64,000 bases of DNA from Thermoleophilaceae bacterium (GTDB lineage: Bacteria; Actinomycetota; Thermoleophilia; Solirubrobacterales; JACPNS01). The stretch spans positions 1,999 to 65,998 of the forward strand of contig JAEMSX010000001.1 of assembly GCA_016462645.1 (NCBI GenBank). Reading direction: 5' to 3'. The notes under the pieces were generated by a model. That model made no database searches. It saw only the letters and a program-made list of their open reading frames with translations, and had not been told where the DNA came from. Positions 6,117 to 57,344 of this stretch are shown here, piece after piece (positions within the stretch are counted from its first letter, which is position 1; each line of letters opens with the position of its first letter). A program made the translations under genes and the position numbers.

Positions 6117-8015
<1,899 letters not shown>

Positions 8016-8065
8016 AAAGGTGCAAATTCCGGCACTTTTGACGAGCTAAGTGACTAAGGCCACAT

Positions 8066-8719: not shown

Positions 8720-8728
8720 GGGGCGACT

Positions 8729-9847: not shown

Positions 9848-10275
9848 TGATCATGGGCGAGCAGAAACAGGGGCTCTACATGATCTCGGTCGCGGCGTCG
9901 CTCGCCGGCGTTCATCCGCAGACCCTGCGGATCTACGAAGAGCGTCACCTGATCCAGCCGACGCGCACGCCCAAAGGCACGCGCCTCTACAGCGATGAGA
10001 ACGTCGAGACCCTCCGACGCATCCAGGAGCTGACCGACGAGGGCATGAACCTCGCCGGCGTCCAGCGCGTCTTCGAGATGGAGGCGCGAATCGCGCGCAT
10101 GGGACGCCGGATCGCTTCGCTTGAGCGTCAGCTCAAACAGACCCGCGCCGACGCGCTCGCCGAGATCGACCGCATCCGCCGCGCCGGTCGAGCAGAAATC
10201 GTCCGCTACCAGCCACCCCAGCCCACCCGAATTCCAGTGCAACGACCCGCAGAGAACGAAGAGAAGGAGGCCTGA
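9844..10275 (+). CDS. hspR: MerR-family heat-shock repressor HspR
   Basis: 143 aa. Mer[41 protein letters not shown]. Canonical position after dnaJ. Its GTG start overlaps the dnaJ TGA (GTGA). Confidence 0.8.
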
Positions 10276-10279
10276 CCAG

Positions 10280-12919
<2,640 letters not shown>

Positions 12920-15546: not shown

Positions 15547-15692
15547 CTGGATTGATACCCCCTCTTGGATCGGTCCAGATTGGTTTTGGGAACTGCTTAC
15601 TGAGTAGGGAACCCTCGCAGGCGGCACATGTTGCGCATGCCGGATTGCGCGATAGATTCAGGGCACCAACTCTTCTACCCGCTGGAGCTGCA

Positions 15693-34214: not shown

Positions 34215-36098
34215 TCAGCGCTTGAGCTTGAGGGTCAGCGTCACCGGGGTGCCCGAAACGCCTGTGGAATCCAGGGGCGCGATCGTCACCTTGTAGGTGC
34301 CGGGCTTGAGCTGCTTCTTGTTCCAGAAACCTGCGAACGTGAACTTGTTGGTCCCGCTCTTCACCTTCAGGGTCTGCGAGCCGCGCTGTTTTGCGATCTT
34401 GAAACGCGCTCCCACGGCGTCGGCGAAGGTCACGGAGAAGGTCGGCGATCCCTTGGTCACGACGGCAAATCCCTTCTTGCCGGCCTTGAATGCCTTCTTC
34501 GGCTTGGCCGCGATGCGTGCGGTCGGGGCCACCCGAGGAAACGGATTGACAGTGACGACGGCCACGGCAGTCGACTTCGCTTCGGCTTGATCGATCGCCG
34601 TGAGCGTTGCCGTGTGCTGACCCACTGCGGCGAACGCGTGACTCACCGAGCTCACGTTCCCGGCGCTCGCACCGTCGTCGAAACTCCACGCGAGAGTGAC
34701 CTCTTCGCCCTCGGCGTCGCTCACTGCGGCGTTGAAAGCAATCGGCGCGCCGGGCAGAACAGATGTCGCCGACGCAGAGATCGAAACCTGCGGCGCGGCG
34801 CGCTGGTACTCGAAGGCACCAAGGTCGGTCTTGACGGTTCCGTCGCCATCGCCGTCAACTGCGCGCCTGCCGCCCGCCAAGTCCTGGTCGGAGTCGGCGA
34901 GCGTGCCTGCCGTTGAACCCTTGTCGATCAGTGGTGAAGTGCGCACGAGCCGGTAGTCGCCGGCCGCTGCGTTGCGGAACCCGGGATCGACGAACAGCAG
35001 CTCGGTGAATTTGCCCGTCTCGAAGCTGAAACCACAACCGGTGTCGACCTGCCAACTGCCGATCGCCGCGAAGAAGCCGAGGTCCATGAAGGCGGTGTTC
35101 ACGCTGCTGGACGCGCCGCGACAGTCGAATGCGCTGTAGGTCGAGACCCCCGAATCAGACACCCAGGTGACGACGTCGGAGACTCTGGCGTTGAGACCCG
35201 AAGGCAGATCGGCCGAATAGAGGCTCAGGCCGGTCTGGTCCGTCCCGCTGCCGACGATCGTCACCCGCTCCACGTTCAAGTCGATCGTCTTGCCGTCGTA
35301 CGCCTCCGCGGCGACACCGAAACCGCTGGCTGCGGCGCCCAGATCGATCAGCGAGTCGGTCAGCGTGACCTTCTTCTCCCCGACACTCAGACCAGTGGTG
35401 AACCCCTTGATCTTCACGTGGTGAAAGTTGAGTTCAGTGTCGGGCTCGCTGCTGTTCACATAGATTCCGGTGCCGGTGTTGCTCGGCGTGGACGTCCTGA
35501 CATCGAGGTTGTATGCGGTCCCGGATTTGTAGTCGGCGTGGATGCCGATTCCGCCGTAGGTCGCGAGATCGATCGTGCCGTCGTGGGCCGTTCCGCCCCA
35601 CCCGATTTCGAGGCCGCTGAAGCCGGCTGAATTGCTGGGAGAGTCCTCGAACTTCTCGACCGCGAAGTCGCTGACGTTGGAGCGCATGACTGACAGTCCC
35701 GATCCGTTCGCGGAAGGCGCATCCACGCGGACCGTGAAGCCGCCCGCCCTGGACCCCGGCTCACCGACGATCGACAACACGTCCTGGCCGGGATACGCAC
35801 CTTGGAAGATCGTCTGCCCGACGCCCGCACCGACGATCGTGGTATCGGAAGCCGGAACGAGGGTCAGCGGTTCAATCAGATCGAATACGTGGGGAGCGAC
35901 CACAACGCTGTCGGCGCCGGGATTCGCGTCGGCGGCATCTTCCGCGCTGATGATCCCAGCGGTGCTCAGGCCGTAGGTTGCAACCGGGCAGCGCGGGAGA
36001 CTCACTCCGACGCAGAAGTCTCCTGCCATCGCGCCCGGCGCGGTCAGGCCAAGTGCGGTTGCAGCGACCAACCCGACGAGCAGCGAGCGAAGCTTCAT
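34215..36098 (-). CDS. secreted right-handed beta-helix / PKD protein, tandem paralogue
   Basis: 627 aa with the same architecture. Signal ..LVAATALGLTAPGAMA, ..DPGFRNAAAGDYRLVRTSPLIDKG..AVDGDGDGTVKTDLGAFEYQ, PKD-like ..IAFNAAVSDAEGEEVTLAWSFDDG..HAFAAVGQHTATLTAIDQAE.., and a 110-aa basic tail collinear with the neighbour. Confidence 0.75.
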   Translation of the reverse strand: MKLRSLLVGLVAATALGLTAPGAMAGDFCVGVSLPRCPVATYGLSTAGIISAEDAADANPGADSVVVAPHVFDLIEPLTLVPASDTTIVGAGVGQTIFQGAYPGQDVLSIVGEPGSRAGGFTVRVDAPSANGSGLSVMRSNVSDFAVEKFEDSPSNSAGFSGLEIGWGGTAHDGTIDLATYGGIGIHADYKSGTAYNLDVRTSTPSNTGTGIYVNSSEPDTELNFHHVKIKGFTTGLSVGEKKVTLTDSLIDLGAAASGFGVAAEAYDGKTIDLNVERVTIVGSGTDQTGLSLYSADLPSGLNARVSDVVTWVSDSGVSTYSAFDCRGASSSVNTAFMDLGFFAAIGSWQVDTGCGFSFETGKFTELLFVDPGFRNAAAGDYRLVRTSPLIDKGSTAGTLADSDQDLAGGRRAVDGDGDGTVKTDLGAFEYQRAAPQVSISASATSVLPGAPIAFNAAVSDAEGEEVTLAWSFDDGASAGNVSSVSHAFAAVGQHTATLTAIDQAEAKSTAVAVVTVNPFPRVAPTARIAAKPKKAFKAGKKGFAVVTKGSPTFSVTFADAVGARFKIAKQRGSQTLKVKSGTNKFTFAGFWNKKQLKPGTYKVTIAPLDSTGVSGTPVTLTLKLKR

Positions 36099-44017: not shown

Positions 44018-46942
44018 CTACTTGACGGTCACCGTTGTCGCCTTGGCGCCGAGCGTGTCACCTGTGCCTGTGATCGTCACGGTCGCCTTGACCTTCTTCT
44101 TCTTGGCCAGCAACTTGGCTGAGCTTGCCGGCGGAGTGATCTTCACCGCGACGAGCTTTCCGGGCTTGACCGTCACCGACTTGGCGAAGGTCTTGCCGCC
44201 GACCTTGACTGCGACCTTTCCTGTGCAGGTCTCCTTCTCTGCGGCACACCCGATCAGAACCTTGAACGGGTGCTTCTTGCCACTCGACTTCACGCTCGAC
44301 ACGAGCACCGTCAACGTCTTCGTCGACTTCGGCGTCGTGATCGTCGGGACTGGAGTGACCGGCGTCGGCAGGACCGGCAGCGTCGTCTCTACGGCCGGCG
44401 GGATCGCATCCGAGTCGTACGTGAGCGACGGCGTCGTGCTCAGCGGTTCGACCTGGCCGTTGGCCTGCTTCTCGAAGGCGTAGGCGAAGCCCATCAGTTC
44501 TGCGTCCGAGAACTCCGGTCCTTCGAGCTGGAGGTTGATCGGCTGACCGTGGTCGTTCACCCCGGCGGGGAAGATCACGGTCGGCACGCCGGACGCCGAC
44601 GACTGCGGGTCCAGGCGGCCGAAGCTCGGCTGGATCGAGTCGTTGAGGTGGATGTCGCTCAGCTGACCCGGGAACACCGTTGCGTCAACGCCGTTGTCAT
44701 CCATCCACTGCTTGAGCAGCGCGCGATAGTTGGCCCGGTAGGCCTCGCGACCCACGATCTGCTCGTCCGTTGCCGCGCCCGTGCCGGCGTAGGGCGTGGT
44801 GTTGCGGAACTGCGGGATACGCAGCGGGTTGCGAATGATCTGCGTCACATCCGAGTACGGATTGTTCGGGTGCGCGAGCATCCACTTCCACCAGCCGGTG
44901 TAGCCCATGTCTCCGAATGCGTTGCCTCCGCTGGGAGCGGACGGCGGCGCGGGGATGTCCACGACGGTCGCACCGGCGGCTTCGAAGTGATCCATCGCAG
45001 CCATCATCGCGTCCTTGGTCCCAGTGGTCCCGAACGGGTCGTTGAACGCACCGGCCGGGATCCCGATCGTCTTGCCTACGAGCGCGTCGTCCTTGAGGGT
45101 GGCCGACCAATCCGTCGGGCGGTGTCCGTTGGAGACATCGTCACGGGGATCCTCGGGGTTGTCGGCGGTCGTCGCATCCAGCATCAGCGCCAGGTCCGGG
45201 AGCGTCTTTGCGATCACTCCCGCGTAGTCCTGGATGAACGTCAGCGGCATCACGCCGTCAGCGCTCTGCATTCCGTCGGTTCCGCGCAGCGACACGAGGC
45301 TCGCGGCGCTCGACGGACCCCAGAGGGAATCGCCGGTCTGCGAGCCGAGTGACGCCGCAGCGAAACTCGATGCGACGGCCACGGCCGATCCGCCGCTTGA
45401 CCCGATCGAACTGCGTGACGGGTCGAACGCGTTCCAGACCTGGCCGTAGGCGCTCGGGCTGAAGTGACCGTCGGTCGCGTACTCAGCCAGGTTCGCCTTG
45501 CCGAGGATGATTGCGCCCGCTTCACGCAGCTTCGCGACGATCCACGAGTCCTTGGTCGGCCGGTAGCCGTCGAACACGAGTGATCCGCCGGTCGTCGGCA
45601 TGTCCTTCGTGTCGTAGAGGTCCTTCGCCAGAATCGGAATTCCGAGCAACGGTCGCTTGTCACCAGCGGCGCGCGCGGCGTCGGCCGCCTTGGCCTGCTC
45701 CATCGCGTCCGGGGCGACGGCGAGCACTGAGTGCAGACCGAGCGGGCCCTGGTCGTAGACCGCAATCCGGTCGAGGTAGGCGCGGACGATCTGCCGCACA
45801 TTCGTCTTGCCCTCGGCAAGGTCGGCTTTCAGGTCCGTGATCGACTTCCCGACCACGTCATACGGCGATGTCGTGACCGGCGTCGGCGCGGCGACCGAAC
45901 CGAGCACCGGCGCCGAGAGCGGCTCGCCCTGGGTCAGCGGACAGTTCGCGGAGCTGAACCCCGGGATCGTGAGCGCCGACAGGTTGTAGTTGACAATCGA
46001 GCAGATCTCGCCCGTGGTCAGACCGGAGAAGTCGGGCGTGGTCGCCAGCGCAGCAGCCATCGTCTCGACCGCGGTCGTCTGGGTGTCGATACCCGGAGCG
46101 GCGCCGCCACTCGGAGTCGTGCGCGTTTCAGAAAGTCCGGTGACGACGAAGTGCGTGACCGAACGCGTCTGCTTCGGCGGGATGATCAGGCGCGTCACGA
46201 GTCCGACGTGGTTGGACTCATCGCCAGTCGTCGGCAGCGCGTTCGAGAACGGATCCCGCACGAACGGACCAGTCTTCGTCAAAGCGCTGGCGTAGCCCGC
46301 GGTTCCGACCGTCGTCGCCGATGGACCGTTCGCGCTCGCCGTGCCGGGACCGGCCGACGGCGTGTACGACGAGAACCAACCGTCAGCGCTCGTGATCGTG
46401 GTGTCACCGCTGGACGTGCTCTTGATCGCGCTCTGGTTGGTGCCGGTGTTGTAGCCGAGCTGACCACCGAACGCGACGTCAACCGTGACGGTCGCCTTTG
46501 TCGTGTTCGTGAACGAATCGAAGAACCGCGCCCAGTTGTCGGTCTTGTTGATCAACAGCTGCCTGCTGGCGGCAACTCCGTCGATCTTCACGGCGTTCTG
46601 GCTGAGGAACTGGTTGACGCCGTCGAACTTCAGGCCGAAGCCGCGCAGCAGGATCCCGCTGAGGCGATCACTCCCGCCGGCAACTTCCATGCGGATTCCG
46701 CCGTAGCCCTGGAGTGAGCCTGTGGCTGTGTTGTGGATACTTCCGGTGTCCAGACCCGGAATCGCCGCATCATTCACGGCCCAGTAGTCGCTGTTGGTGT
46801 TGGTGACCTGGTTCCAGGCGCCGGCCGTGGAGGCCAGCATGGTGAGGGCGAAGATCGTCAGGGCGAGAACCTGAATCGTGCGCACGAAACGGCGCAGTTT
46901 CAGGGGTCGCCGAGACGACCCTCGAGGTACGAGAGCGTTCAT
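44018..46942 (-). CDS. large secreted amidase-signature (AS) family amidase with unknown N-terminal domain and Lys-rich C-terminal domain
   Basis: 974 aa. Signal/anchor ..IQVLALTIFALTMLASTAGA. AS core ..LGIPILAKD..TTGGS.. and ..SSIGSSGGSAVAVASSFAAASLGSQTGDS... The ~340 aa preceding the AS domain have no motif I recognise. The last 106 aa are a Lys-rich beta-strand-like tail. Confidence 0.8.
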   Translation of the reverse strand: MNALVPRGSSRRPLKLRRFVRTIQVLALTIFALTMLASTAGAWNQVTNTNSDYWAVNDAAIPGLDTGSIHNTATGSLQGYGGIRMEVAGGSDRLSGILLRGFGLKFDGVNQFLSQNAVKIDGVAASRQLLINKTDNWARFFDSFTNTTKATVTVDVAFGGQLGYNTGTNQSAIKSTSSGDTTITSADGWFSSYTPSAGPGTASANGPSATTVGTAGYASALTKTGPFVRDPFSNALPTTGDESNHVGLVTRLIIPPKQTRSVTHFVVTGLSETRTTPSGGAAPGIDTQTTAVETMAAALATTPDFSGLTTGEICSIVNYNLSALTIPGFSSANCPLTQGEPLSAPVLGSVAAPTPVTTSPYDVVGKSITDLKADLAEGKTNVRQIVRAYLDRIAVYDQGPLGLHSVLAVAPDAMEQAKAADAARAAGDKRPLLGIPILAKDLYDTKDMPTTGGSLVFDGYRPTKDSWIVAKLREAGAIILGKANLAEYATDGHFSPSAYGQVWNAFDPSRSSIGSSGGSAVAVASSFAAASLGSQTGDSLWGPSSAASLVSLRGTDGMQSADGVMPLTFIQDYAGVIAKTLPDLALMLDATTADNPEDPRDDVSNGHRPTDWSATLKDDALVGKTIGIPAGAFNDPFGTTGTKDAMMAAMDHFEAAGATVVDIPAPPSAPSGGNAFGDMGYTGWWKWMLAHPNNPYSDVTQIIRNPLRIPQFRNTTPYAGTGAATDEQIVGREAYRANYRALLKQWMDDNGVDATVFPGQLSDIHLNDSIQPSFGRLDPQSSASGVPTVIFPAGVNDHGQPINLQLEGPEFSDAELMGFAYAFEKQANGQVEPLSTTPSLTYDSDAIPPAVETTLPVLPTPVTPVPTITTPKSTKTLTVLVSSVKSSGKKHPFKVLIGCAAEKETCTGKVAVKVGGKTFAKSVTVKPGKLVAVKITPPASSAKLLAKKKKVKATVTITGTGDTLGAKATTVTVK

Positions 46943-47167: not shown

Positions 47168-48451
47168 CTAGGGAACGTCGAACTCCTGGCTCGGATCGGT
47201 ACTCGGTTTCGGTTGAGCCGGTGCCCTGGTCGGAGTCTGCTGCTGCACCTGCGGCGCTGCCTGTGGGACCTGCTGAACCTGCGGGGTGGTCACCGGAACG
47301 GCCGCGTTCGTCGATGCTGATCGCCTTGCTGCTGCAGCGCGTGCGCGTGCGCGGGCTCGAGCTCTCGCGCGGGCTCGCGAGCGAGCCCTTGCGTCACGCC
47401 TGCGCTCCGCCCTGCGCTCGCGGGCAGCACGCGCCTTGCGCCTGGCCTTCGCAGCTGCCGCCTTCTCCTCCGCGCGATCGGCCGCCGAAGTGTCGGCTGT
47501 CTGCGCGGACTTCACGCTGGCATCGTCACCGCCGCCGAACATGCTCAAGGTCGTGACGCCAGCGAGCGCGATCGCCACCACCGCGGCGGCAGTAACGGCG
47601 ATACGCGTGAAGCGTCCGGAAGAACTCGTGCTCGCTCTGCGCGCGGGCCGGCCGCGCAGCGGACTCGGAGCGCGGCGCGCGGCGTTCGGCGGACTCGCAA
47701 TGCCGAGGCTGACGCTGCCCGTGAGCGCGCGCAGGATCGGCGCGCTGGGATTGGTGATCGCGGTCAGCCCACGCGCCTCGATCGCGTGTCGCTGGCAGCC
47801 GACGCACTCGTCCACGTGGCGCGAGGCCGCACGGTATTCGTCTGAGCGCGGGTCGAGGATGCCGAGCGCATACTGGTTCACCAGCGGAAGCAGTTCATCG
47901 CACGGCTCGCCCTCGTCGAATCCCTCGAGCACCGGCTCCAGCGCGGCAAGCACGTCATCCAACGCCTCAACGATCCGGAACCCCCCGACGCCCGCGACCT
48001 CGGCGGCCTCGAAGGCCTTGAAGCCATAGACGCGGCAGAGCGTTATCGCCTGGAGCTCGCGTTGGTTGAGCGTGGTGCGCATCCGTGTGGAGAACTCGCG
48101 TTGGAGCACCTGTTGTTCCGGCGTCGCCTCGATCGGGTCGGCGATGCCGACGGCCTCAAGCACCTCCAGCTCCATGCGCGACGCCGGGTGGAGCACGCGG
48201 TGCTCGTCGATGGCCTGTCGGCAAGTTGAGTCAGTCAGCAGCTGTTCGAGATTGTCGATCTCGCCCTTGGCCCAGAGCCGCGAGAAGACCCCGTGCCACG
48301 CGCGGTTGTAGAACGTGTCCACGTCGCGCGCCGCGAAGTCGATCCCGTCGCTCGCGAGCTGGTTGTATGCGACGCGCGAGACCTCGCTGCGGTGCCTCGC
48401 GTATTCGTCGCCGACGATCACGAAGTCGTGCTGTTCGGTCGCCCCGCTCAC
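47168..48451 (-). CDS. single-chain ECF sigma factor / zf-HC2 anti-sigma membrane protein (copy B)
   Basis: GTG start at 48451 overlaps the upstream gene's TGA (GTGA), 427 aa. Region-2-like ..FYNRAWHGVFSRL..LLTDSTCRQAIDEHR... Region-4-like ..LNQRELQAITLCRVYGFKAFEAAEVAGV... Then ..ASRHVDECVGCQRH.. (H-x3-C-x2-C), hydrophobic segment IAVTAAAVVAIALAGVTTLSMF, an Arg/Ala polybasic block and a Pro/Gln tail. Confidence 0.65.
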   Translation of the reverse strand: MSGATEQHDFVIVGDEYARHRSEVSRVAYNQLASDGIDFAARDVDTFYNRAWHGVFSRLWAKGEIDNLEQLLTDSTCRQAIDEHRVLHPASRMELEVLEAVGIADPIEATPEQQVLQREFSTRMRTTLNQRELQAITLCRVYGFKAFEAAEVAGVGGFRIVEALDDVLAALEPVLEGFDEGEPCDELLPLVNQYALGILDPRSDEYRAASRHVDECVGCQRHAIEARGLTAITNPSAPILRALTGSVSLGIASPPNAARRAPSPLRGRPARRASTSSSGRFTRIAVTAAAVVAIALAGVTTLSMFGGGDDASVKSAQTADTSAADRAEEKAAAAKARRKARAARERRAERRRDARARSRARARARARARARAAAARRSASTNAAVPVTTPQVQQVPQAAPQVQQQTPTRAPAQPKPSTDPSQEFDVP

Positions 48452-50049
48452 GGCATCACCAGCGCCTGCACGACGGGGCTTGCCTTGCTCGGCCACGGCC
48501 AACCCTGCTTGGCGCGGACGATCGCGCGAAAGCTGAACAGTGTCGGGCGCGTGACGCGCGTGAAGCGGTGCTGCCACTTGTAGGCCCCGCTCCTGCCCGC
48601 GGTGACAACCTCGATGGCGCTCCAGCGCTTGCCGTTCCTGACCTCGATCTCGACCGGAGCGCCGCCCGCTGCCGAAGCAGCTCCTGCGAGGCGACCAGCG
48701 ATCGTCAAGCTGGCGCCGCGACGCAGCACGCGCTGGGATCCACGGGCGCTGAGCGTGAGCGCCTGACGCAGGGTTGTGGATGCCGAGGCGGTGCTCTGCG
48801 CGCCGTCGGCCGGCCGGAAGACGAACGTGATGCGCAGCGCACCGCTCGGCTTGACCTTGAAACTGAACTTGCCGTCGGCCTTCGTCCTCGTCGTTCCGAT
48901 CGGGATCAACGTTGACGGACCGAAGAGGTTTGACTTGTAGACCTCCAGCGTGGCGCCGCCGATCGCGCCGCCGGCGCTGGTGCGCAAGACGCCGCGCACG
49001 GCCACCTTCTTCGCCGACTTGGCGGCGATCAGCTTCTTGCTCGTGGAGAGCGCGGGTACCTCGACTGCCGGGGTGCCATTCGCGCCGACGCCACCGATCG
49101 TGAAGTTGATCGGCGCGAGCGCGCCGACGTTGCCGGCAGCGTCGGTCGCGTACACGACGACGGTGTGCCTGCCGGAGCCGTAGTCGCCGAGGTTGAACTC
49201 ATAGTTCTTGCTGACGGCCGAGGGGCACGGGACGGTCTTTGTATACGGGGTGCTGCACGAACCGCCCGAGTCGGACGCTGACTTCACCACCCCGTCGACG
49301 CTCAGCGCGACGGTGCGAACTCCGCCGCCGACATCACTCGCGGCAACGGCGAGCGAGAACTTTCCGGCCAACGCGACGGCACCGGGGAGCGTTCCCCCGG
49401 TGAGGGCGACGACCGGCGCGTTCAGATCCCTTAGTTCGACCTGCGAGTTGTAGAGCCGTGCCCACAGCGAAGGGGTGGCGCCGGACGGGCAGCCGCTCGG
49501 CTCAACGCACTCGACGCCGAGCTGGAGACTGCTCGCGTTGATGCCACTGGACTGGGTCCCGTTGGCGGCAATCGCGCAGTCGACCTTCTTGGCTTCGCAT
49601 TCGCCCCAGTAGGTGTTGGCAGAAGCGACTGTGCGCCTCAGCCCGGCACTGATCGCCGGGTGCGAGCCGCTGGTTGCGAACGTAACGGCCGCAGAGCGCT
49701 TGATGTCGTAGTTGAGAATCGTGGTTCCGGCCGGTGCATCAAAGCGCACGCCCGCGTTCTCACCGGAGACCATTGCCAGTCCCACGGAAGCGACCACCGA
49801 GAACCCATTGCACGCGGTGCCGAGACTGAAGAGGTTCGCGTGCCCGGGCACCGAGGCCTGCGTGACCCAGGCGTCGTTGCCCACCACTTCGTCGTTCGGG
49901 CCGAGGCAGCTGTAGACGCTGTAGGTCCCGGCGGAAGCAGACGCCGCCGCCATCGCGAACACCGTGCAGGCAGCGGCGAGCACGGCAAAGCACGCGGACA
50001 CGCGTCGCCAACGCACGGCTATTTGCCGAGATACAACCACCGAGTTCAC
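48448..50049 (-). CDS. secreted 8-Cys / Ig-like-domain surface protein (P1)
   Basis: 533 aa. GTG at 50049; GTG at 50040 has better AGGGAG spacing. Signal ..RWRRVSACFAVLAAACTVFAMAAASASA then GTYSVYSCLGP... Eight Cys in the mature N-terminal half. Ig-like ..GGGVRTVALSVDGV..HTVVVYATDAAGN... Carboxypeptidase-regulatory-like ..GATLEVYKS..ADGKFSFKVKP... C-terminus ..RFTRVTRPTLFSFRAIVRAKQGWPWP... Confidence 0.7.
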   Translation of the reverse strand: MNSVVVSRQIAVRWRRVSACFAVLAAACTVFAMAAASASAGTYSVYSCLGPNDEVVGNDAWVTQASVPGHANLFSLGTACNGFSVVASVGLAMVSGENAGVRFDAPAGTTILNYDIKRSAAVTFATSGSHPAISAGLRRTVASANTYWGECEAKKVDCAIAANGTQSSGINASSLQLGVECVEPSGCPSGATPSLWARLYNSQVELRDLNAPVVALTGGTLPGAVALAGKFSLAVAASDVGGGVRTVALSVDGVVKSASDSGGSCSTPYTKTVPCPSAVSKNYEFNLGDYGSGRHTVVVYATDAAGNVGALAPINFTIGGVGANGTPAVEVPALSTSKKLIAAKSAKKVAVRGVLRTSAGGAIGGATLEVYKSNLFGPSTLIPIGTTRTKADGKFSFKVKPSGALRITFVFRPADGAQSTASASTTLRQALTLSARGSQRVLRRGASLTIAGRLAGAASAAGGAPVEIEVRNGKRWSAIEVVTAGRSGAYKWQHRFTRVTRPTLFSFRAIVRAKQGWPWPSKASPVVQALVMP

Positions 50050-50130: not shown

Positions 50131-51348
50131 CTACTGCAAATCGAACTCAGCGCCGCTGTCGTCCGACGGATCGTTCGGCGTGTACTTCGGCGCGGCGGGC
50201 GCGGGCGCCACCGGCTGCGCGGCCTGCGGCTGCGTCTGTTGCGGGACCGGCTGGCTGGCTTCAGGCTTCGCCGCCGCGGCCCTCTTTCTGGCTGCTGACC
50301 GGCGGGCGGCGGCGCGTTTCTTGGCCGCCTTCTCCTTTGCGGCGGCCTTCGCCGCGACCGCATCCGCTGCACCGCTGCTCGCACCCTGACTCACGGGCGC
50401 AGAGCTTCCTGCGTCGTCTCCTGCGGAAATCTTGTTGGCGGCCACAAAACCGCCTGCCGCGACCACAGTCACCGCGGCAATCACAGCCGCAGCCTGCGCC
50501 GCCCCGCCGATTCCGGCACCACCCGCAGCAGCGCCTCCGGCCGAAGAACCTCCGGCTGCCGAGCTACCCGTTGCGGCGGCCGCGCCTGCGGCACCGACGC
50601 CGGCGGCAGCACTCGTCAGCGCGAAGAGCAGGAGCGCGCTCGGGATCGTCACAGCGGTCAGTCCGCGTGTGCCCATCACATGGCGGCGGCAGCCCGGGCA
50701 ACCTTCAAGATGAGCGACGGCCTCGCGGTAGTCGTCGCTTTCCGGCTCGAGCGCGCCGAGCGCAAACTGGTTGATCAGCACCGCGCGGTCCTCGCACCAG
50801 GTGCCTTCCTTGATCGAAGCCAGCACCGGTCGCAGCTTGCGGGAGACCTCGTCCATGATCTTCTCCATGCGTTTCGGGCGCACACCGATCTGTTCGGCGG
50901 CCTCCGGACGCGAGAAGCCGTAGACGTAACAGAGCGTCGCCGCCCGCAGCTCGCGCTGGCTCAGCTCGGAGCGCATGCCCTCGACGAACTGCTTGAACTC
51001 GCGTTGCTGGTCGAGCGTCTCCTCAATCGGGTCGTCAGTGCCGAGCGTCTCAAGCACCACCGGGTCGGCGTGGCGATCGGGATGCAGCGTGCGGTACTCG
51101 TCGATCGCGCGGCGGTAGGTCATCTGCACGAGCAGGCCCTTGCGGTTCTCGATCTGCTGCCCGTCCTGAAGCTTGGTGTAGAGGCCGTACCAGGCCTGGT
51201 TGTAGAAGCCGTCCATGTCCAGCTCGGCGAAGCGGATCTTCGACGCCGCGAGCTTGCCGGCGACCGTACGCGTGACCTCGTCCTTGAAGGCTTCGTACTC
51301 CTCGCCGATCACCTGGTCGGCGTTGATGACTGAAGCGGGGCTACTCAT
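50131..51348 (-). CDS. single-chain ECF sigma factor / zf-HC2 anti-sigma membrane protein (copy A)
   Basis: Trimmed to the ATG at 51348, 405 aa. ..FYNQAWYGLYTKL..LLVQMTYRRAIDEYR.., ..LSQRELRAATLCYVYGFSRPEAAEQIGVRPKRMEKIMDEVSRKL.., ..AVAHLEGCPGCRRH... Gly/Ala-rich hydrophobic segments, a Lys/Arg/Ala block, then a Pro/Gln tail ending ..DPSDDSGAEFDLQ. Confidence 0.65.
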   Translation of the reverse strand: MSSPASVINADQVIGEEYEAFKDEVTRTVAGKLAASKIRFAELDMDGFYNQAWYGLYTKLQDGQQIENRKGLLVQMTYRRAIDEYRTLHPDRHADPVVLETLGTDDPIEETLDQQREFKQFVEGMRSELSQRELRAATLCYVYGFSRPEAAEQIGVRPKRMEKIMDEVSRKLRPVLASIKEGTWCEDRAVLINQFALGALEPESDDYREAVAHLEGCPGCRRHVMGTRGLTAVTIPSALLLFALTSAAAGVGAAGAAAATGSSAAGGSSAGGAAAGGAGIGGAAQAAAVIAAVTVVAAGGFVAANKISAGDDAGSSAPVSQGASSGAADAVAAKAAAKEKAAKKRAAARRSAARKRAAAAKPEASQPVPQQTQPQAAQPVAPAPAAPKYTPNDPSDDSGAEFDLQ

Positions 51349-51904
51349 CCTGAAAACTGTCGGCAACCATGAACAACGCCACGCTTGCGCCCAGCGCGTT
51401 GGCAACATGCCCAGGGACGCCCATGCGATCGGCCGGCGCGCAGGCCAGCGCCGCGAAAATGCTCGAAGCGATCCGGCGCGCGAGCGTGACGGTCTCGCCG
51501 CCGGCGCGCAGGCCGTTGAACATCAGGTCGCGATCATCGCTCATCACAAGTGCCGTCTCATCGAGTGCTCCGGCGATCCAGACGTCCGGGTCGTAGCCGG
51601 TGTCGCGCGCGTGGATCTCCAGCGCGCGGGCGGTCAGTCGCGCGACGCCCGCAGATGCACTGCGAAGCATCGCGGCGTGCTCGTCCGCTGTCGGGGCGGC
51701 TTCAAAGATCTGGGCGATCATCGCGAGATCGACCGCGGCGTCACCCGCAAGGCAGAGCAGGTCCTGCGTCGAGCACGCGGTTTCGATGTCATACGACGTC
51801 CCGGTGAAGTTGCCGCCGATCGCTATCGCCGTGCCGTGGGCGCGAGCGATCGACTCGCGACCGCGCCGCCCGAGTTCCACCAGTGCGCGCTCGAACGGAG
51901 TCAT
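51341..51904 (-). CDS. hypothetical cytoplasmic Ala-rich protein, present in only one copy of the module
   Basis: 187 aa from the ATG at 51904, which overlaps the upstream TGA (ATGA). Its TAG at 51341-51343 overlaps the next gene's start by 8 nt. High GC3, no TM or signal, no recognisable motif. Confidence 0.5.
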   Translation of the reverse strand: MTPFERALVELGRRGRESIARAHGTAIAIGGNFTGTSYDIETACSTQDLLCLAGDAAVDLAMIAQIFEAAPTADEHAAMLRSASAGVARLTARALEIHARDTGYDPDVWIAGALDETALVMSDDRDLMFNGLRAGGETVTLARRIASSIFAALACAPADRMGVPGHVANALGASVALFMVADSFQDE

Positions 51905-53535
51905 CGCGCCACCAACACAGTCACCGACTGCGCCGTCTCGGTGGGCCAGGGCCAGGACTTGTTCCTGCGCACGATCGCGCGGAAGGTGAACCGCGTGGGC
52001 TGCTTCACGCGGGTGAACCGATACTTCCACTTGTAGCTGCCGCGCGAGTTCGCCTCGACCACGCCGACCGCACGCCAGGACTTGCCGATTCGCGCGTCGA
52101 TCTCGACCGGGGTGCCGTCGGCCGCCGCGCCCGCGCCGTCGAGCGCGCCCCTGAGTGTGAGTGCGCCACCGGGCCTGACGCGCGACTTCGAACGCTTGAC
52201 CGAAAGCCGCAGATCCTCTCGCACGATCGATGACGTGACGGCCGTCCCGATCGAGGACGGGTACGGCTTGAACAGCACGCTGATGCGCTGCGCGCCATGC
52301 GGCTTGACTCTGACCGAGAAGCGTCCGGTGGAAGTTGTGGTGATCGTTCCGATCGACCTGGTTGCAGCGTCGAACACACCAAGATCGAGCGAGGTGACCT
52401 CAAGCGCCGCCCCGGCAACCGGAGCACCGGCTGGAGTGGTGAGCGTTCCTTCCACCACGACGGTCCTGCCGTTGACCGAGGAAATCACCGACTTCTCGGT
52501 TCTCACGGTCGGCTGCTCGACGGCCGGCGAGCCGTTGCTCGGTGGAGTTCCGCCGCCGCCAGCGCCCCCGCCCGAAAGGCCACCCGAGGTGACGCTGAAG
52601 GTGAAGGTGTGGGGCGAGCTGAGATTTCCGGCCGCGTCCGTGGCCGTGAGCGTCGCGGTGTGCACGCCGTTGGTCAGCGCCGCCGTGTTGACGCTGAGCT
52701 TGCCCAGAAGACCCGAGGGGCACGGCGCGCGCAGCGTGTAAGGCTGACCGCAGCTGCCGCCGGCGACGCTTGTCTGGCTGAAGACTCCGTCGATCGCAAG
52801 GTCGATCATGCGCACGCCGCCACCGACATCGGTCACAGTCGCATCGATCGACTGAACAGCGGCGGCGCTCGCAGAGCCCGGCAACGAGCCTGCGACCGAA
52901 GCGATCACAGGGGCGGTCGGATCTTCGAGATCCACTCGCGCATTCATCAGTCGCGTGGAGAGCTGGGTGAACGAGCCGGTTCCGCAACCGGTGTCATCAG
53001 AGCAGCGAACGCCGACGCTCAGCTTCGAGACAGCCAGGCCGCTGCGCGAGAACGCGTCGGTGAGTGAGCCACAAGGGGTGGTCACGTTGACGCAGTCGAA
53101 GCCGGTTGTTGTGGCACCGCTGGTCTCGCTCACCCCGGCCGAGACGACGCTCGGCGGCGGAGTCGCGACCGGGAAGGCGATCGCGACCGCGCGGTTGAGC
53201 GAGTAGCCACTGATGGTCGTTCCGGCCGGCGCGTCAAAGACGTACTCCGCGCCGTCGCCGAGCACGTACGCGCGGGTCGTTGAAGCGGCGACGCTGAGAT
53301 CGCCGCAATTCGTGCCGAAGGCGAAGTCGAGCGTCTGATTGGGGTCGTTGACCGATGTGAGCCAGGAGGAGTTGGGCAGCGCTTCCGCGCTCGGGCCGAG
53401 GCAGGAGTACACGCTGTAGGTCGCGGCATTGGCCGGGCCGACCGCCGCGAAGGCAATCGCGCACAGCGTCAGACCGGCAACGATGACTGTTCGCGCCGCG
53501 AGGAGCCTGCTTTTCGATCGAACCGTGATCTGCAT
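51901..53535 (-). CDS. secreted 8-Cys / Ig-like-domain surface protein (P2, paralogue of P1)
   Basis: Trimmed to the ATG at 53535 (MQITVRSKSRLLAARTVIVAGLTLCAIAFAAVGPANA then ATYSVYSCLGP..), 544 aa. Collinear with P1, including ..FDAPAGTTI.., ..GGGVRMIDLAIDGV..HTATLTATDAAGN.., ..GAALEVTS..STGRFSVRVKP.. and ..RFTRVKQPTRFTFRAIVRRNKSWPWP... Confidence 0.7.
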   Translation of the reverse strand: MQITVRSKSRLLAARTVIVAGLTLCAIAFAAVGPANAATYSVYSCLGPSAEALPNSSWLTSVNDPNQTLDFAFGTNCGDLSVAASTTRAYVLGDGAEYVFDAPAGTTISGYSLNRAVAIAFPVATPPPSVVSAGVSETSGATTTGFDCVNVTTPCGSLTDAFSRSGLAVSKLSVGVRCSDDTGCGTGSFTQLSTRLMNARVDLEDPTAPVIASVAGSLPGSASAAAVQSIDATVTDVGGGVRMIDLAIDGVFSQTSVAGGSCGQPYTLRAPCPSGLLGKLSVNTAALTNGVHTATLTATDAAGNLSSPHTFTFSVTSGGLSGGGAGGGGTPPSNGSPAVEQPTVRTEKSVISSVNGRTVVVEGTLTTPAGAPVAGAALEVTSLDLGVFDAATRSIGTITTTSTGRFSVRVKPHGAQRISVLFKPYPSSIGTAVTSSIVREDLRLSVKRSKSRVRPGGALTLRGALDGAGAAADGTPVEIDARIGKSWRAVGVVEANSRGSYKWKYRFTRVKQPTRFTFRAIVRRNKSWPWPTETAQSVTVLVAR

Positions 53536-53951
53536 CTTCTGACTCTCAAACACCCGCGAGCGGGAATCGGTGTGCCCAAAGAAAACTAACTGCCAGCCGC
53601 CACCGGAGACTGCACCCGCGAAATCGCGACAATACCGCGAGTGAAGTAGATCCCGGTGGGCGACTGGCAGCCGCGTCCACGTGATGAAGCTGCGCGTGCG
53701 CAAAGGCCCGAAGGGTCCCGACCATCCATGATCAAGCGCTCGCGCGTGGAACGTTGGCCGTCGCGGTGTCTGCCTGAGACCGCGTGTCCCGTCAACGCCG
53801 AAAGCTGCGCCGGAGCCCCCCGGCGCATGTATGACGTGTTCCACCTCACCACGTCACGCATGGAACGTCCAACTGACACCGGGGGGAAAATCGAGGCGTC
53901 AGCCTCCACATGCGTGGCTGCGTGTCCGGAGCTCCGCTCCAGAGAGTTGCT

Positions 53952-53969
53952 GTGAACATCATGTTTCAC
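53952..53969. promoter_or_regulatory. AT-rich inverted repeat sharing an 11-mer with the merR-divergent promoter palindrome
   Basis: GTGAA-CATCATGT-TTCAC. ATCATGTTTCA (53958-53968) is the exact reverse complement of TGAAACATGAT at 54888-54898. Confidence 0.35.
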
Positions 53970-54028
53970 ACCCGTATGTCGGGAGCATCGCCATCGCTCC
54001 CCCCCCCTCTCGGGTGCGAGGAATTTCG

Positions 54029-54853
54029 CTAGCTGCGGCGTGAACGGCGACCGGAAGACTTCTTGTCTTTCGGTTCTTTGGGCTGGCGCTCGGCCTTCTT
54101 GTGGCCGTTTAGCCTGAGGTCTTCCTTGGCGATGCGCTGGAGGATCTTGCCGAAAGCCTCTTCGGCGGCCGTGTCCATGTTCACGCGGAATGAGGCCATC
54201 ACGGTCTCGGTGGCCAGCGGGCGAAGTCCCTCGATCGCTTCAACGACCTTGGGGAAGCTCTCGGGCGGCAGACCGGCCTTCTCCTGCGGACGAACGACGC
54301 CAGTGTCGACCATCTTCGTGAAGACTTCTGCGATCGCTCGTGTGTGTTCGTTGACCTTTTTGAACACGTCAAAGAGCGTGTCGACGGGCACCCCCAGTTC
54401 GAGCGCGCTGATGCCTGCGCGCAGGAGCGTCGGGCTGAGCACCTCATAGCGATCGTCGCCCAGCGGAATGACGAAACCGAGGTCGATCCCCTGCTTGATC
54501 ATCCGCGAGTCGATCTCGCCGACCTGCTCGGCCAGCTCCTTCAGCGTCATCACCTCGGAGGGCTCTTCCGCGAACGGCGTGAGCACGAGATTGCGCAGGT
54601 CGCCGATGTTGTCGCCGGTCTCTTCGGCACGCTCGACCAGGCGCTGGATCGCGGTGAGGTTGAAGCCGCCGGCCTGCAACTGCTGGATCAGCTCCAGCCG
54701 GGCGATGTGGCGATCGCCGTAGTAGCCGATACGTCCTTTTACGTCGGGCGCGGGGAGCAAACCGCGAGACTGATGGGCGCGGATGTTGCGCACCGTCATT
54801 CCGGTCTGCTGCGCGAGTTCGTCGATCGTGAGTTGGTCTTTGCTTTCAGCCAT
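54029..54853 (-). CDS. MerR-family transcriptional regulator with long C-terminal domain
   Basis: 274 aa. HTH ..LTIDELAQQTGMTVRNIRAHQSRGLLPAP..GYYGDRHIARLELIQQLQ... A ~190-aa C-terminal region of unknown function ends in a Lys/Arg-rich tail. Confidence 0.8.
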   Translation of the reverse strand: MAESKDQLTIDELAQQTGMTVRNIRAHQSRGLLPAPDVKGRIGYYGDRHIARLELIQQLQAGGFNLTAIQRLVERAEETGDNIGDLRNLVLTPFAEEPSEVMTLKELAEQVGEIDSRMIKQGIDLGFVIPLGDDRYEVLSPTLLRAGISALELGVPVDTLFDVFKKVNEHTRAIAEVFTKMVDTGVVRPQEKAGLPPESFPKVVEAIEGLRPLATETVMASFRVNMDTAAEEAFGKILQRIAKEDLRLNGHKKAERQPKEPKDKKSSGRRSRRS

Positions 54854-54916: not shown

Positions 54917-56836
54917 ATGACACACACCCTCTTCTCTTCAATCCTTGCAGTGACTGAAGCCGCCCCGCCAGCCGGAGGCGCCGCGCTCAAGGAAATCATC
55001 ATCGCCACCCTGATGGGCGGCATCGCCTTCGGTGGCGTCGTGTTCCTCGCGCTCGGGCACCGCAGCGGCAAGATCCACTGGCTGCAGACGGCCGGCGACT
55101 TCGCCGGCAGGCAGCTGAGCCTTCCGGCCTGGGCGGCGCTTCCGCTCGTGGTTCTGACTGGATCGCTGATCGCCGCAGTGTTCGGCCTGTACTGGGACGT
55201 CTCGCTCCACCTTTCAAAGGGCCGCGACGCGGGTCCGCTGGCCAACCCCTCGCACTACTTCATCCTCGTCGGCCTGCTCGGCTGCTTCTCTGCCGGAGTG
55301 CTGGCGCTGACGATGCCCAAGCCCGGCACCAAGCCGAGTCCATGGTCCGTCAAACTCGCCGAAGGCTGGTACGCGCCGGTCGGCGGTCTGCTGATCGCAA
55401 TTTCAGCCGCGTTCGGCCTCGCCGGCTTCCCGCTTGACGACTTCTGGCACCGCATGTTCGGCCAGGACGTCACGCTCTGGGGTCCCACCCACCTCCTGAT
55501 GCTGACCGGCGCCGGCCTCTGCCTGATCGGCGCATCCGTGCTGCTGATCGAAGGTGGCCTCGCAACCGACCGCAAGCGCGGCAACCGCGAGCTGACCCGC
55601 CAGGAGAAGCTCATCCGCACCGGTCGCCGCGCGATGTCCGCCGGCGGACTGCTGGTCGCGCTCTGCATCTACATGGGCGAGTTCGACTTCGGCATCGCGC
55701 AGTTCCAGCAGGTCTTCCACCCGCTGATGGTGATGTTCGCCGCCGGCGTGGCGCTGACCTACGCACGCTCCACAGCCGGTAGGGGCGGCGCGATCCTCGC
55801 CGTGCTCTTCTACCTGCTGGTCCGCGGCCTGCTCACGCTGATCGTGTCGGATGTGTTCGGTCGACCGGAGGCGAGCTTCCCGCTCTTCCTCGGTTGCGCC
55901 ATTGCCGTCGAGCTTGCCGCCCTGGCAATGGGCTCGAGGGTCTACACGAAGCCGATGCAGTTCGCGATCGCCTCCGGTGCTGCGATCGGCACGCTCGGTC
56001 TTGCGACTGAGTGGGCGTGGACCAACGTCTGGGGCATCTACCCGTGGACTTCCGCACTGCTGCCCGAGGGCGCGATCATCGGCTTCATCGCTGCGGTCGC
56101 CGGCGCCTTCATCGGTGCTTGGATGGCCAACTCCCTGATGCTGCGCCCGCGCCCGATGGGCGCACTGCGCTACGCGCCGGTCGCCTCGGTGCTCGTGATG
56201 ATGGTGATGATCGGATACGGCCTGCACCAGTACTCGCCGAAGGGCCTTGAGGCGCAGCTGACCAACACGCCAGCCGCGACGCCTCCGGGCGAGACCGGCA
56301 AGTGGGTCAACACCACGATCAAGCTGAACTCGGACTACTTCGACACCGACCGCAAGTGGGCGAAGTCGATCGCGTGGCAGGGTCCGGGCTTCGTCGTGAA
56401 CGATCTCAAGCAGACCGGCCCCGGCACGTTCGAGACGACCGAGCCGATCCCGGCCTACGGCAAGTGGAAGTCGATGGTGCGCTTCCACAAGGACTCATCG
56501 CTGATGGGCGTCGCGGTGTTCGAACCGCTCGACGCAGCGATCCCCGCCGCGGAGGTCCCGGCCGCACCGCAGGTCACGCGCGACCTGAGGCCCGACCGCG
56601 TGATCCTCCAGCGCGAGGCGAAGTTTGAAGGCGGCTGGCTGACCAACTTCGGCTACTTCCTGCTGTTCGCGATCGCAATGTCGCTGCTCGGCCTGCTGGC
56701 CTGGGGCATCCAGCGCGTGAGCACGCCGCTCACCGAGGAGCAGGGCGCGACCGAGGACGAGGTCGAGAAGGCCAGCAGGCCTCCGGCGACCCGCAGCGCC
56801 TCTAGCGCCCGGCCGTTGACTCCGCGCGACGCTTGA
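54917..56836 (+). CDS. large polytopic membrane protein of unknown function
   Basis: 639 aa. ~11-12 hydrophobic segments, a ~130-aa soluble segment (..KWVNTTIKLNSDYFDTDRKWAKSIAWQGPGFVVNDLK..), then a final TM and an acidic tail. No motif recognised. Confidence 0.65.
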   Translation: MTHTLFSSILAVTEAAPPAGGAALKEIIIATLMGGIAFGGVVFLALGHRSGKIHWLQTAGDFAGRQLSLPAWAALPLVVLTGSLIAAVFGLYWDVSLHLSKGRDAGPLANPSHYFILVGLLGCFSAGVLALTMPKPGTKPSPWSVKLAEGWYAPVGGLLIAISAAFGLAGFPLDDFWHRMFGQDVTLWGPTHLLMLTGAGLCLIGASVLLIEGGLATDRKRGNRELTRQEKLIRTGRRAMSAGGLLVALCIYMGEFDFGIAQFQQVFHPLMVMFAAGVALTYARSTAGRGGAILAVLFYLLVRGLLTLIVSDVFGRPEASFPLFLGCAIAVELAALAMGSRVYTKPMQFAIASGAAIGTLGLATEWAWTNVWGIYPWTSALLPEGAIIGFIAAVAGAFIGAWMANSLMLRPRPMGALRYAPVASVLVMMVMIGYGLHQYSPKGLEAQLTNTPAATPPGETGKWVNTTIKLNSDYFDTDRKWAKSIAWQGPGFVVNDLKQTGPGTFETTEPIPAYGKWKSMVRFHKDSSLMGVAVFEPLDAAIPAAEVPAAPQVTRDLRPDRVILQREAKFEGGWLTNFGYFLLFAIAMSLLGLLAWGIQRVSTPLTEEQGATEDEVEKASRPPATRSASSARPLTPRDA

Positions 56837-57272: not shown

Positions 57273-57344
57273 GGGTCCTTAGCTCAACTGGTAGAGCATC
57301 GGGCTTTTAACCCGACGGACAGGGTTCGAGTCCCTGAGGACCCA
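57273..57344 (+). tRNA. tRNA-Lys (anticodon UUU)
   Basis: Cloverleaf folded by hand. Acceptor GGGTCCT/AGGACCC, D arm GCTC-AACTGGTA-GAGC, anticodon arm TCGGG-CTTTTAA-CCCGA, T arm CAGGG-TTCGAGT-CCCTG, discriminator A. CCA is not encoded. Confidence 0.9.

Follow-up and report, generated by a model that had tools for sequence, protein, structure and literature searches.

Organization of the locus

We analyzed a 64,000-nucleotide stretch of a Thermoleophilaceae genome (order Solirubrobacterales; contig JAEMSX010000001.1), hereafter the window, which carries two paralogous minus-strand genes, copy A (sigmaA) and copy B (sigmaB). Each encodes in a single chain a sigma-like core of the extracytoplasmic function (ECF) type, a zinc-binding anti-sigma (ZAS) domain, a transmembrane (TM) helix, and a long tail. 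A preliminary description, made from the DNA letters alone, had placed these parts in the open reading frames (ORFs) 51348..50131 and 48451..47168, and all of the peptides that it quoted are present in these two frames and in the order that it gave.

Read along the minus strand, merR is followed by a 490-nt spacer, X1, a gene for a 187-aa protein, copy A, an 81-nt spacer, X2, copy B, and a gene for a 974-aa protein with an amidase domain (Table 1). The cassettes are tightly packed. The ATG of copy A overlaps the final 8 nt of the 187-aa gene, which itself overlaps the stop codon of X1 as ATGA, and X2, a 533-aa gene, ends in a TGA that shares bases with the GTG start of copy B (GTGA). The maximal ORFs begin at 51408 for copy A and 48577 for copy B; the starts at 51348 and 48451 are supported by these overlaps with the upstream genes and by a public gene call (P0001) that is identical to copy A and has the same length of 405 aa.

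X1 and X2 are paralogues with 41% identity, and therefore the entire X-sigma cassette has been duplicated in tandem; copies A and B are 44% identical over 268 aa (E 3e-71). The spacer between sigmaA and X2 has small conserved blocks only. The second cassette is optional: copy B and X2 are present in the window and in six of the compared loci (L001, L006, L007, L009, L110, and L111) and absent from L112 to L115, where purH directly follows copy A. In the window the sigma cassettes sit between purH and merR, and merR is kept at the same position in all 13 loci that carry the structured RNA described below.

Table 1. Features of the sigma/anti-sigma locus (window coordinates)
Feature	Coordinates	Strand	Description
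merR	54853..54029	-	MerR-family regulator upstream of the RNA and the cassettes; Pfam MerR_1 2e-19
Conserved structured RNA (leader or noncoding RNA)	53589..54006	-	∼420 nt between merR and X1; long end helix, then TTAGTTTT
X1	53535..51901	-	544-aa secreted all-beta protein; opens cassette A
187-aa gene	51904..51341	-	acidic, apparently cytoplasmic orphan protein between X1 and sigmaA
Copy A (sigmaA)	51348..50131	-	405-aa fused ECF-like sigma / ZAS anti-sigma / TM / tail
Sigma-2 (region 2), sigmaA residues 10-92	51073..51321	-	divergent; three helices
Sigma-4 with helix-turn-helix (YGFSRPEAAEQIGVRPKRMEKIMDEVSR), sigmaA residues 107-181	50806..51030	-	hhalign; Pfam r4_2
ZAS-type anti-sigma domain, sigmaA residues 182-235	50644..50805	-	C185-x27-H213-x3-C217-x2-C220
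TM helix (AAAVIAAVTVVAAGGFVAA), sigmaA residues 278-307	50428..50517	-	Kyte-Doolittle 19-mer mean 2.26
Tail, sigmaA residues 308-405	50134..50427	-	low complexity; basic A/K/R helix, then Pro/Gln-rich; EF end
EF motif (..DSGAEFDLQ in copy A)	50134-50151 (copy A), 47171-47188 (copy B)	-	extreme C terminus
X2	50049..48448	-	517-533-aa secreted all-beta protein; opens cassette B
Copy B (sigmaB)	48451..47168	-	427-aa paralogue; parts in the same order as in copy A

Copy A has a sigma fold joined to an anti-sigma domain

As the reference for profile-profile comparisons we used Pfam-positive fused ECF sigma factors, which match Sigma70_r2 and r4_2 and have the same order of parts (alignment A2). The family profile aligned with these proteins at 99.7% in hhalign (E 9e-26) over 208 columns that include sigma-2, sigma-4, and the ZAS domain. 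Taken domain by domain, sigma-2 (residues 1 to 95) matched the sigma-2 of the Pfam-positive relatives at 94.1% (E 1.2e-7), sigma-4 matched their sigma-4 at 90.8% (E 1.2e-6), and the ZAS domain matched that of the canonical fused relatives at 95.5% (E 1.3e-8); all six cross-domain controls gave 0.3% or less. The family profile also matched sigma-4 of WhiG and CnrH in a search of PDB sequences, albeit weakly.

An AlphaFold2 (AF2) model built on 59 sequences reached a predicted local distance difference test (pLDDT) score above 90 for residues 10 to 235, including the junction of sigma-4 with the ZAS domain. Sigma-2 consists of helices 10-35, 42-61, and 69-88, all with pLDDT >90, and is connected to the four helices of sigma-4 by a short linker of ∼14 to 18 residues (89-106, with low pLDDT at 103-106). 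Only 2 to 3 residues lie between the last sigma-4 helix and the first ZAS helix. The ZAS domain is formed by helices 184-196, 205-216, and 218-248, again with pLDDT >90, which bear C185, H213, C217, and C220. When this model was compared with the PDB in Foldseek, the top matches were mostly sigma factors (WhiG, SigH, BldN, SigL, SigK, CnrH, RpoE, and SigW) with a probability of ∼1, and the matches to ECF sigma factors spanned 165 to 200 columns. The E-values were modest because the domain orientations differ, and the root mean square deviations of 13 to 19 Å were alike for sigma factors bound to an anti-sigma factor and for those bound in a holoenzyme.

The four residues C185, H213, C217, and C220 are invariant in the 59 aligned homologues, and the C-x27-H-x3-C-x2-C spacing is constant in all complete ORFs from ∼85 loci. 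The best PDB sequence match for the zinc segment was RslA (3hug_B), a weak match aligned on H-x3-C-x2-C. Such a domain would be expected to bind zinc through these four residues and to inhibit sigma-2 and sigma-4 in cis. Among the 59 relatives, zf-HC2 is matched by 8 and the region 4 model PF08281 (r4_2) by 24, both at E<0.01.

The reading of copy A in the preliminary description, a sigma region 2/region 4 core followed by a zf-HC2-type motif and a membrane anchor, agrees with the full-length and per-domain hhalign matches (99.7% and 91 to 96%), the AF2 model, and the Foldseek results. Together with the invariant ligands, these results establish that the N terminus of copy A is a region 2/region 4 sigma fold, like that of sigma-70 group 4, and that its HxxxCxxC segment is of the ZAS type.

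A membrane anchor, a variable tail, and a conserved C-terminal motif

A strong hydrophobic helix lies 60 to 70 aa past the zinc motif in both copies, with a Kyte-Doolittle value of 2.29 in copy B, and an equivalent helix is found in 58 of 59 relatives. Directly after the zinc motif lies a weaker segment, with values of 1.84 for copy A and 0.93 for copy B; 33 of the 59 relatives score 1.6 or more here. The hydrophobic segment, or segments, previously noted after the zinc motif thus resolve into one strong helix shared by both copies and a second, weaker one in copy A only. This weaker segment contains conserved prolines, is continuous with the last ZAS helix, and would represent a fourth anti-sigma helix or a linker rather than a membrane-spanning segment. 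In those relatives whose main TM helix is flanked by charges, K/R residues precede the helix and an acidic GGDD follows it, a distribution that fits an N-in/C-out topology, which would place the tail outside the cell.

Tails across the family measure ∼100 to 170 aa and contain 8 to 33 prolines. The tail of copy A is disordered in the AF2 model save for helix 328-358, and in neither copy did the tail match a Pfam domain. This poorly conserved, low-complexity region is capped by a conserved EF motif, located within the last 2 to 6 residues in nearly all complete family ORFs (∼80 ORFs, L001 to L085), with E401 invariant and F402 more than 90% conserved. The endings include ..AEFDLQ in copy A, ..QEFDVP in copy B, ..EFELR, ..EFGFER, and, in a distant clade, ..REFSPG. 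The motif may serve as a recognition peptide for a protease or for a partner protein. We also considered a sorting signal of the PEF-CTERM type and rejected it, as the motif is followed by neither a TM helix nor a basic cluster.

The two copies are not equivalent

Orthologues of each copy were compared in the same seven genomes. Identity among them is 87% for copy A versus 38% for copy B in sigma-2, 90% versus 37% in sigma-4, 96% versus 30% in the helix-turn-helix (HTH), and 82% versus 53% in the ZAS domain. Three of the seven copy B orthologues (L006, L007, and L111) carry a 12-residue deletion that removes the recognition helix of sigma-4 and a further 20-residue deletion between the domains, and these same proteins keep the zinc ligands, the TM helix, the basic tail, and a near-invariant KPSTDPSQEF C terminus. 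In the window, copy B still has the helix segment, yet of the four basic residues found in copy A's recognition helix it preserves a single one (RPKRMEK in copy A, GGFRIVE in copy B).

Given 96% HTH identity on one side and decaying, helix-deleted sigma domains on the other, the copies are not equivalent. Judged by these identities, the HTH of copy A is under strong purifying selection, and copy A behaves like a working, DNA-reading sigma factor. Copy B is probably a pseudo-sigma that does not recognize promoters, its sigma half appearing to be under relaxed constraint and its signaling half retained. The initial view that copy B repeats the order of parts of copy A was correct as far as the order is concerned, but copy B does not stand as an equivalent second sigma factor, with fast-evolving sigma domains and no recognition helix in 3 of 7 orthologues.

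The family is restricted to Solirubrobacterales

Members of the family are confined to Solirubrobacterales (Conexibacter, Patulibacter, Solirubrobacter, and Thermoleophilaceae metagenome-assembled genomes [MAGs]), with 300 family stretches confirmed in species-representative genomes. The fusion is found as a single ORF in ∼90 ORFs from ∼85 loci, in isolates as well as in MAGs, and we therefore rejected an artifact of gene fusion or frameshift. With the ligands invariant as well, the arrangement lies far outside what chance would produce. A profile of residues 1 to 240 searched against 1.84 billion representatives recovered 510 clusters at 50% identity, 201 of these at E≤1e-30, and in the best 150 of the 510 clusters the match nearly always ran from sigma-2 to the zinc motif in one stretch. 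Ordinary ECF sigma factors were not among the matches, and the family is therefore strongly diverged.

A protein search returned 98 close relatives, almost all of which lack precomputed Pfam hits, and ∼20 distant relatives of 450 to 500 aa that combine Pfam Sigma70_r2 and r4_2 with the same zinc motif, a Gly/Ala-rich stretch, a TM helix, and a Pro-rich tail. NCBI and JGI label members of the family "sigma-70 family" or "sigma24."

Secreted X proteins and the 187-aa protein accompany the sigma genes

In the clade of at least 41% identity to copy A, the sigma gene is immediately preceded by an X homologue in 40 of the 42 loci with enough flanking sequence; in the clade of 35 to 40% identity, X is not directly upstream. 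X1 has a signal peptide (..GPANA|ATYSVYSC) and is only 40 to 75% identical across the seven genomes. The AF2 model of X2, a protein with 8 Cys residues and an isoelectric point (pI) of 9.9, consists entirely of beta strands with a mean pLDDT of 85.7, and Foldseek matched it only to tandem beta-sandwich proteins (MG domains of complement and alpha-2-macroglobulin, and adhesins), with no enzyme fold among the matches. X as a protease or other enzyme was rejected given the all-beta model, these matches, and hits to Ig-like and CarboxypepD_reg models that were all below threshold. Electrostatic pairing of X with the basic tail was likewise rejected, since X is also basic (pI 9.1 to 9.9).

The 187-aa protein gave no match in Pfam or among PDB sequences. 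Its gene lies between X1 and copy A in L001, L006 to L011, and L110 to L115, and near the module, sometimes elsewhere in position, in several further Solirubrobacterales genomes.

A candidate structured RNA precedes the operon

DNA conservation in the 490-nt spacer between merR and X1 is above that of the flanking genes. We aligned this spacer from 13 orthologous loci (the window, L001 [5346-5835], L006 to L009, L011, and L110 to L115) and obtained a consensus structure with 143 pairs in 22 helices. In this structure 88% of the cells are paired, compared to 36 to 44% in controls with slid partners, a fraction that is inflated by the structure having been derived from the same alignment. The counts of double changes are the stronger evidence: 81 of the 143 pairs show them, against 39.5±3.8 in shuffles (0 of 500 reached 81) and 27 to 33 in the slid controls. 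The alignment energy is -267, compared to -90±7 for column shuffles and -240 for the reverse complement, and for the single sequence the z-score is -4.0.

A long helix followed by the conserved TTAGTTTT forms a terminator-like site at 53606-53593, ∼55 nt before the X1 start. The RNA has no match in Rfam 15 at the gathering score or at E≤1-5. An invariant 20-mer hairpin within it, GCGCCGGGGGGCTCCGGCGC, has exact copies in 24 otherwise unrelated metagenome contigs (L086 to L109), none of which contains the rest of the RNA, and the hairpin alone is therefore not diagnostic. From its covariation, the element looks like a previously undescribed large leader or noncoding RNA, and it is a candidate for control of the operon of X1, the 187-aa gene, and sigmaA.

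Other genes of the window

The secreted 974-aa protein is encoded at 44018-46942 (minus strand), between copy B and purH. It has a central amidase domain (Pfam 2e-63) and an N-terminal stretch of ∼380 aa without assignment, and its gene, missing from the syntenic loci L001 and L110, appears to be a lineage-specific insertion. Divergent from merR, a gene at 54917-56836 (plus strand) encodes a 639-aa polytopic membrane protein with no Pfam match; genes of 635 to 642 aa (cut) occupy its position in L001 and in all six of L110 to L115, a correspondence made by position.

Secreted repeat proteins abound in the window, and some of them appear to be duplicates. Two adjacent secreted proteins of ∼630 aa with PKD domains are encoded at 32231-34123 and 34215-36098, and two RCC1-repeat proteins of ∼545 aa at 4323-5957 and 13990-15627, all on the minus strand. 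The chromosomal housekeeping context, at 6117-12919 and 15975-43948, comprises a putative dnaK-like gene, grpE, a gene at 8729-9847, and clpB, a scattered purine cluster with purD, purE, purB, and a purQ-like gene, to which synteny with L001 would add purN and purH, and a tRNA at 57273-57344.

Relation to known fused and unfused systems

The fused architecture itself is already known in Actinobacteria. Members of ECF48, ECF52, and ECF53 have a C-terminally fused ZAS domain and one or two TM helices, with activation by proteolysis predicted, and the C-terminal extensions of ECF48 and ECF53, of up to ∼400 residues, likely include the ZAS domain (PMC8999054). SCO4117 of Streptomyces coelicolor, a member of ECF52, was knocked out and truncated, and its sigma domain alone proved active (PMC5826349); for ECF52, which is found in Actinobacteria only, release by a protease has been proposed (PMC5826349, PMC8999054). 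In IutY of Pseudomonas putida (ECF243), Prc, which recognizes the C terminus, and then RseP release a sigma domain of ∼23 kDa, as followed by Western blots (PMC5411451). The statement in the preliminary description that single-chain sigma/anti-sigma architectures had not been characterized experimentally was therefore wrong, both for IutY, with its processing by Prc and RseP, and for SCO4117.

The window copies resemble SCO4117 in having an ECF core, a zf-HC2 domain, one or more TM helices, and a long Pro-rich C-terminal extension in one chain. SCO4117, however, reaches the TIGR02937 and pfam13490 models, for which the window copies are below threshold, and it carries a carbohydrate-binding module, whereas the tails of the window proteins are modeled as disordered and have no recognizable domain. 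Unlike SCO4117, the window proteins end in the EF motif and are coupled to a secreted beta-sandwich protein. Because they have no carbohydrate-binding module, they are not ECF52 members in the strict sense. ECF48 and ECF53, likened here by their published description only, share the architecture of copies A and B and of the relatives in alignment A2. In sigma-2 and sigma-4 the window family is far more divergent than typical classified ECF sigma factors.

With IutY the copies have in common a sigma and an anti-sigma part in a single membrane-spanning chain. IutY, however, has a FecR-type periplasmic anti-sigma domain, depends on a TonB-dependent outer membrane receptor, and belongs to a Gram-negative organism, whereas the window proteins, which are from Thermoleophilia, carry a ZAS domain predicted to be cytoplasmic. 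Pfam gave no FecR match in either window copy, and the neighbors are the beta-sandwich protein, the 187-aa orphan, and MerR. Lacking a FecR domain, the copies are not IutY-like.

The zinc site, H-x3-C-x2-C with a fourth ligand upstream, is the one found in SigL-RslA (3hug), SigW-RsiW (5wuq), and SigR-RsrA. RslA and RsiW are moreover single-pass membrane proteins, and SigL and SigW are among the fold matches of the window sigma part. These pairs are encoded by two genes and bind in trans as two chains, whereas in the window proteins the two parts are fused at a distance of 2 to 3 residues. PhyR offers a different likeness, since its degenerate ECF-like domain is no longer a sigma factor, as may be compared with copy B and its orthologues, and the corresponding model (PF22233, PhyR_sigma-like) is matched by 9 of the 59 relatives. 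PhyR, however, is soluble, has a receiver domain, and titrates NepR, whereas copy B comes with a ZAS domain of its own, is anchored by a TM helix, and would expose its tail outside the cell.

What is new in the present family is a divergent clade restricted to Solirubrobacterales in which the sigma domains fall below the curated thresholds and carry systematic region 2 replacements, the proteins end in the EF peptide, X and the 187-aa protein accompany the sigma gene, and copy A is paired with a decaying copy B.

A model for activation and its alternatives

We consider it probable, though by no means assured, that copy A is a strongly divergent ECF-type sigma factor specific to Solirubrobacterales, a single-pass membrane protein that is held inactive in cis and freed by proteolysis. 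This reading builds on direct observations: the parts are homologous to known domains and conserved in sequence and order, a membrane segment is present, the genes are coupled within an operon, and the two copies are asymmetric. In such a protein, cytoplasmic sigma-2 and sigma-4 would be followed by a class I-like ZAS domain, a Gly/Ala-rich linker, a single TM helix, and an extracytoplasmic basic and Pro-rich tail with the EF end. At the membrane, the ZAS domain would block sigma-2 and sigma-4 in cis until a signal from outside led to trimming of the tail, possibly with the involvement of X1, the C-terminal EF motif, or both. A site-2 protease would then cleave inside the TM helix, which is Ala-rich and contains Gly, and removal of the ZAS remnant in the cytoplasm would yield a soluble sigma factor. 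Activation by regulated proteolysis, as the preliminary description also proposed, is a reasonable inference from this layout, and the EF peptide and the cotranslated X protein are the obvious candidates for signal input.

Several results weigh against this reading. Copy A falls below the curated cutoffs of Pfam Sigma70_ECF (17.0 versus 21.1 bits), Sigma70_r4_2 (14.4 versus 25.7 bits; E 0.029), zf-HC2 (PF13490; 14.3 versus a gathering threshold of 22.2 bits), and TIGR02937 (32.7 versus 42.9 bits), Pfam Sigma70_r2 was not detected in it at all, and copy B gave no match to the Pfam sigma and zf-HC2 models or to TIGR02937 of NCBIfam. In sigma-2, several positions without variation in the canonical relatives carry other residues, with AEDxxQ(D/E)xF changed to DxDxFYNQAW and WLYR..N to (L)L....R, and these systematic replacements make RNA polymerase binding by copy A uncertain. 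Enumeration of bipartite 5-mer/4-mer words in 49 upstream regions brought out no ECF-type promoter of the X genes above shuffles; the top motif reached 18 against a shuffle maximum of 16, and all were GC-rich words. No site-1 or site-2 protease gene was found among the 36 gene products of the window that we scanned. The weaker hydrophobic segment of copy A weakens the case for a single-pass topology, and the K/R excess of the tails (pI 9.5 and 11.9) gives them a strongly basic character seldom seen in segments outside the cell.

The missing region 2 match could be taken to mean that neither copy is a sigma factor any longer and that the sigma domains either mimic a sigma factor, in the manner of PhyR, or serve the ZAS domain as a ligand within the chain, in membrane signaling or anti-sigma-like proteins that act on another, canonical sigma factor. 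This would agree with the scarcity of Pfam matches among the 59 relatives (Sigma70_r2 in only one, PhyR_sigma-like in the nine mentioned above), with the recovery of only 510 proteins from the 1.84 billion representatives, so that the family has drifted from the millions of ordinary ECFs, and with the copy B orthologues, which lose the recognition helix and keep the ZAS domain, TM helix, tail, and EF motif. Domains that mimic ECF sigma factors are also an established mechanism (cited in PMC7826278). For copy A, however, the high identity of the HTH, sigma-4, and sigma-2 over seven genomes in which X1 varies so much is the signature of a conserved surface contacting DNA and polymerase, and R157, K159, R160, and K163 of the recognition helix are kept. 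We regard this explanation as unlikely for both copies taken together. Less likely still is a redox or zinc switch without proteolysis, in which oxidation of its thiols or loss of zinc would make the ZAS domain let go of the sigma part, as happens in RsrA, with the sigma factor staying tethered and working at the membrane or with the tether serving for localization only. Sensing of thiol oxidation is known for ZAS proteins, RsrA among them, all four ligands of the C/H-C-C site are invariant here, and the scanned gene products of the window include no protease linked to the locus. Redox sensitivity is absent from many ZAS domains, though, and the conserved TM helix, external tail, and C-terminal motif would be needless for a purely cytoplasmic switch; a tethered sigma factor would also have to bring polymerase to DNA at the membrane.

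The topology of copy A could also differ from the one assumed in the proteolysis model. Were residues 229 to 251 a first TM helix, the tail would lie in the cytoplasm, where nucleic acid or the surface of the membrane could be its target, and would not sense anything outside. The hydrophobicity of this segment in copy A and in the 33 relatives noted above, the basic character of the tails, and a match of one relative's tail to a histone-H1-like model speak for two TM helices. The same segment is weak in copy B and below 1.6 in 26 of 59 relatives, however, and with its conserved prolines it runs on from the ZAS helix as helix IV of an anti-sigma domain would; the flanks of the main TM helix, where charged, also have the polarity of a single-pass protein with its N terminus inside. 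We judge the two-TM arrangement very improbable.

The proteolysis model can be extended to a module of three layers, of a kind undescribed for any ECF system. Copy A, tethered and functional, would present the EF handle to X or to a site-1 protease that reads C termini, copy B, turned into a sigma mimic with only the signaling half (ZAS, TM, tail, and EF) left, would draw away or compete for the protease or partner of copy A, and the ∼420-nt RNA with its terminator-like helix would gate the operon downstream of the MerR regulator. We offer this as a speculative scheme, which as a whole is doubtful.

Implications

To our knowledge, IutY, a Gram-negative protein with a different type of anti-sigma domain, is the only fused sigma/anti-sigma protein with a worked-out activation path. 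Fused "one-component" ECF sigma factors are predicted to be common in Actinobacteria, and for the ZAS-fused actinobacterial groups the question is that of the site-1 event and the signal. The family provides unusually clean handles for it. The invariant four-ligand zinc site lies 2 to 3 residues past sigma-4, there is one TM helix, and the very C terminus bears a short conserved peptide; in addition, there are an obligate, translationally coupled secreted partner and a natural pair of copies, one of which has lost the DNA-reading helix. It also represents a whole order-level clade of sigma factors that is missed by the cutoffs of curated hidden Markov models. Should the upstream RNA be confirmed, it would add to the large RNAs a new class that is associated with genes of envelope signaling.

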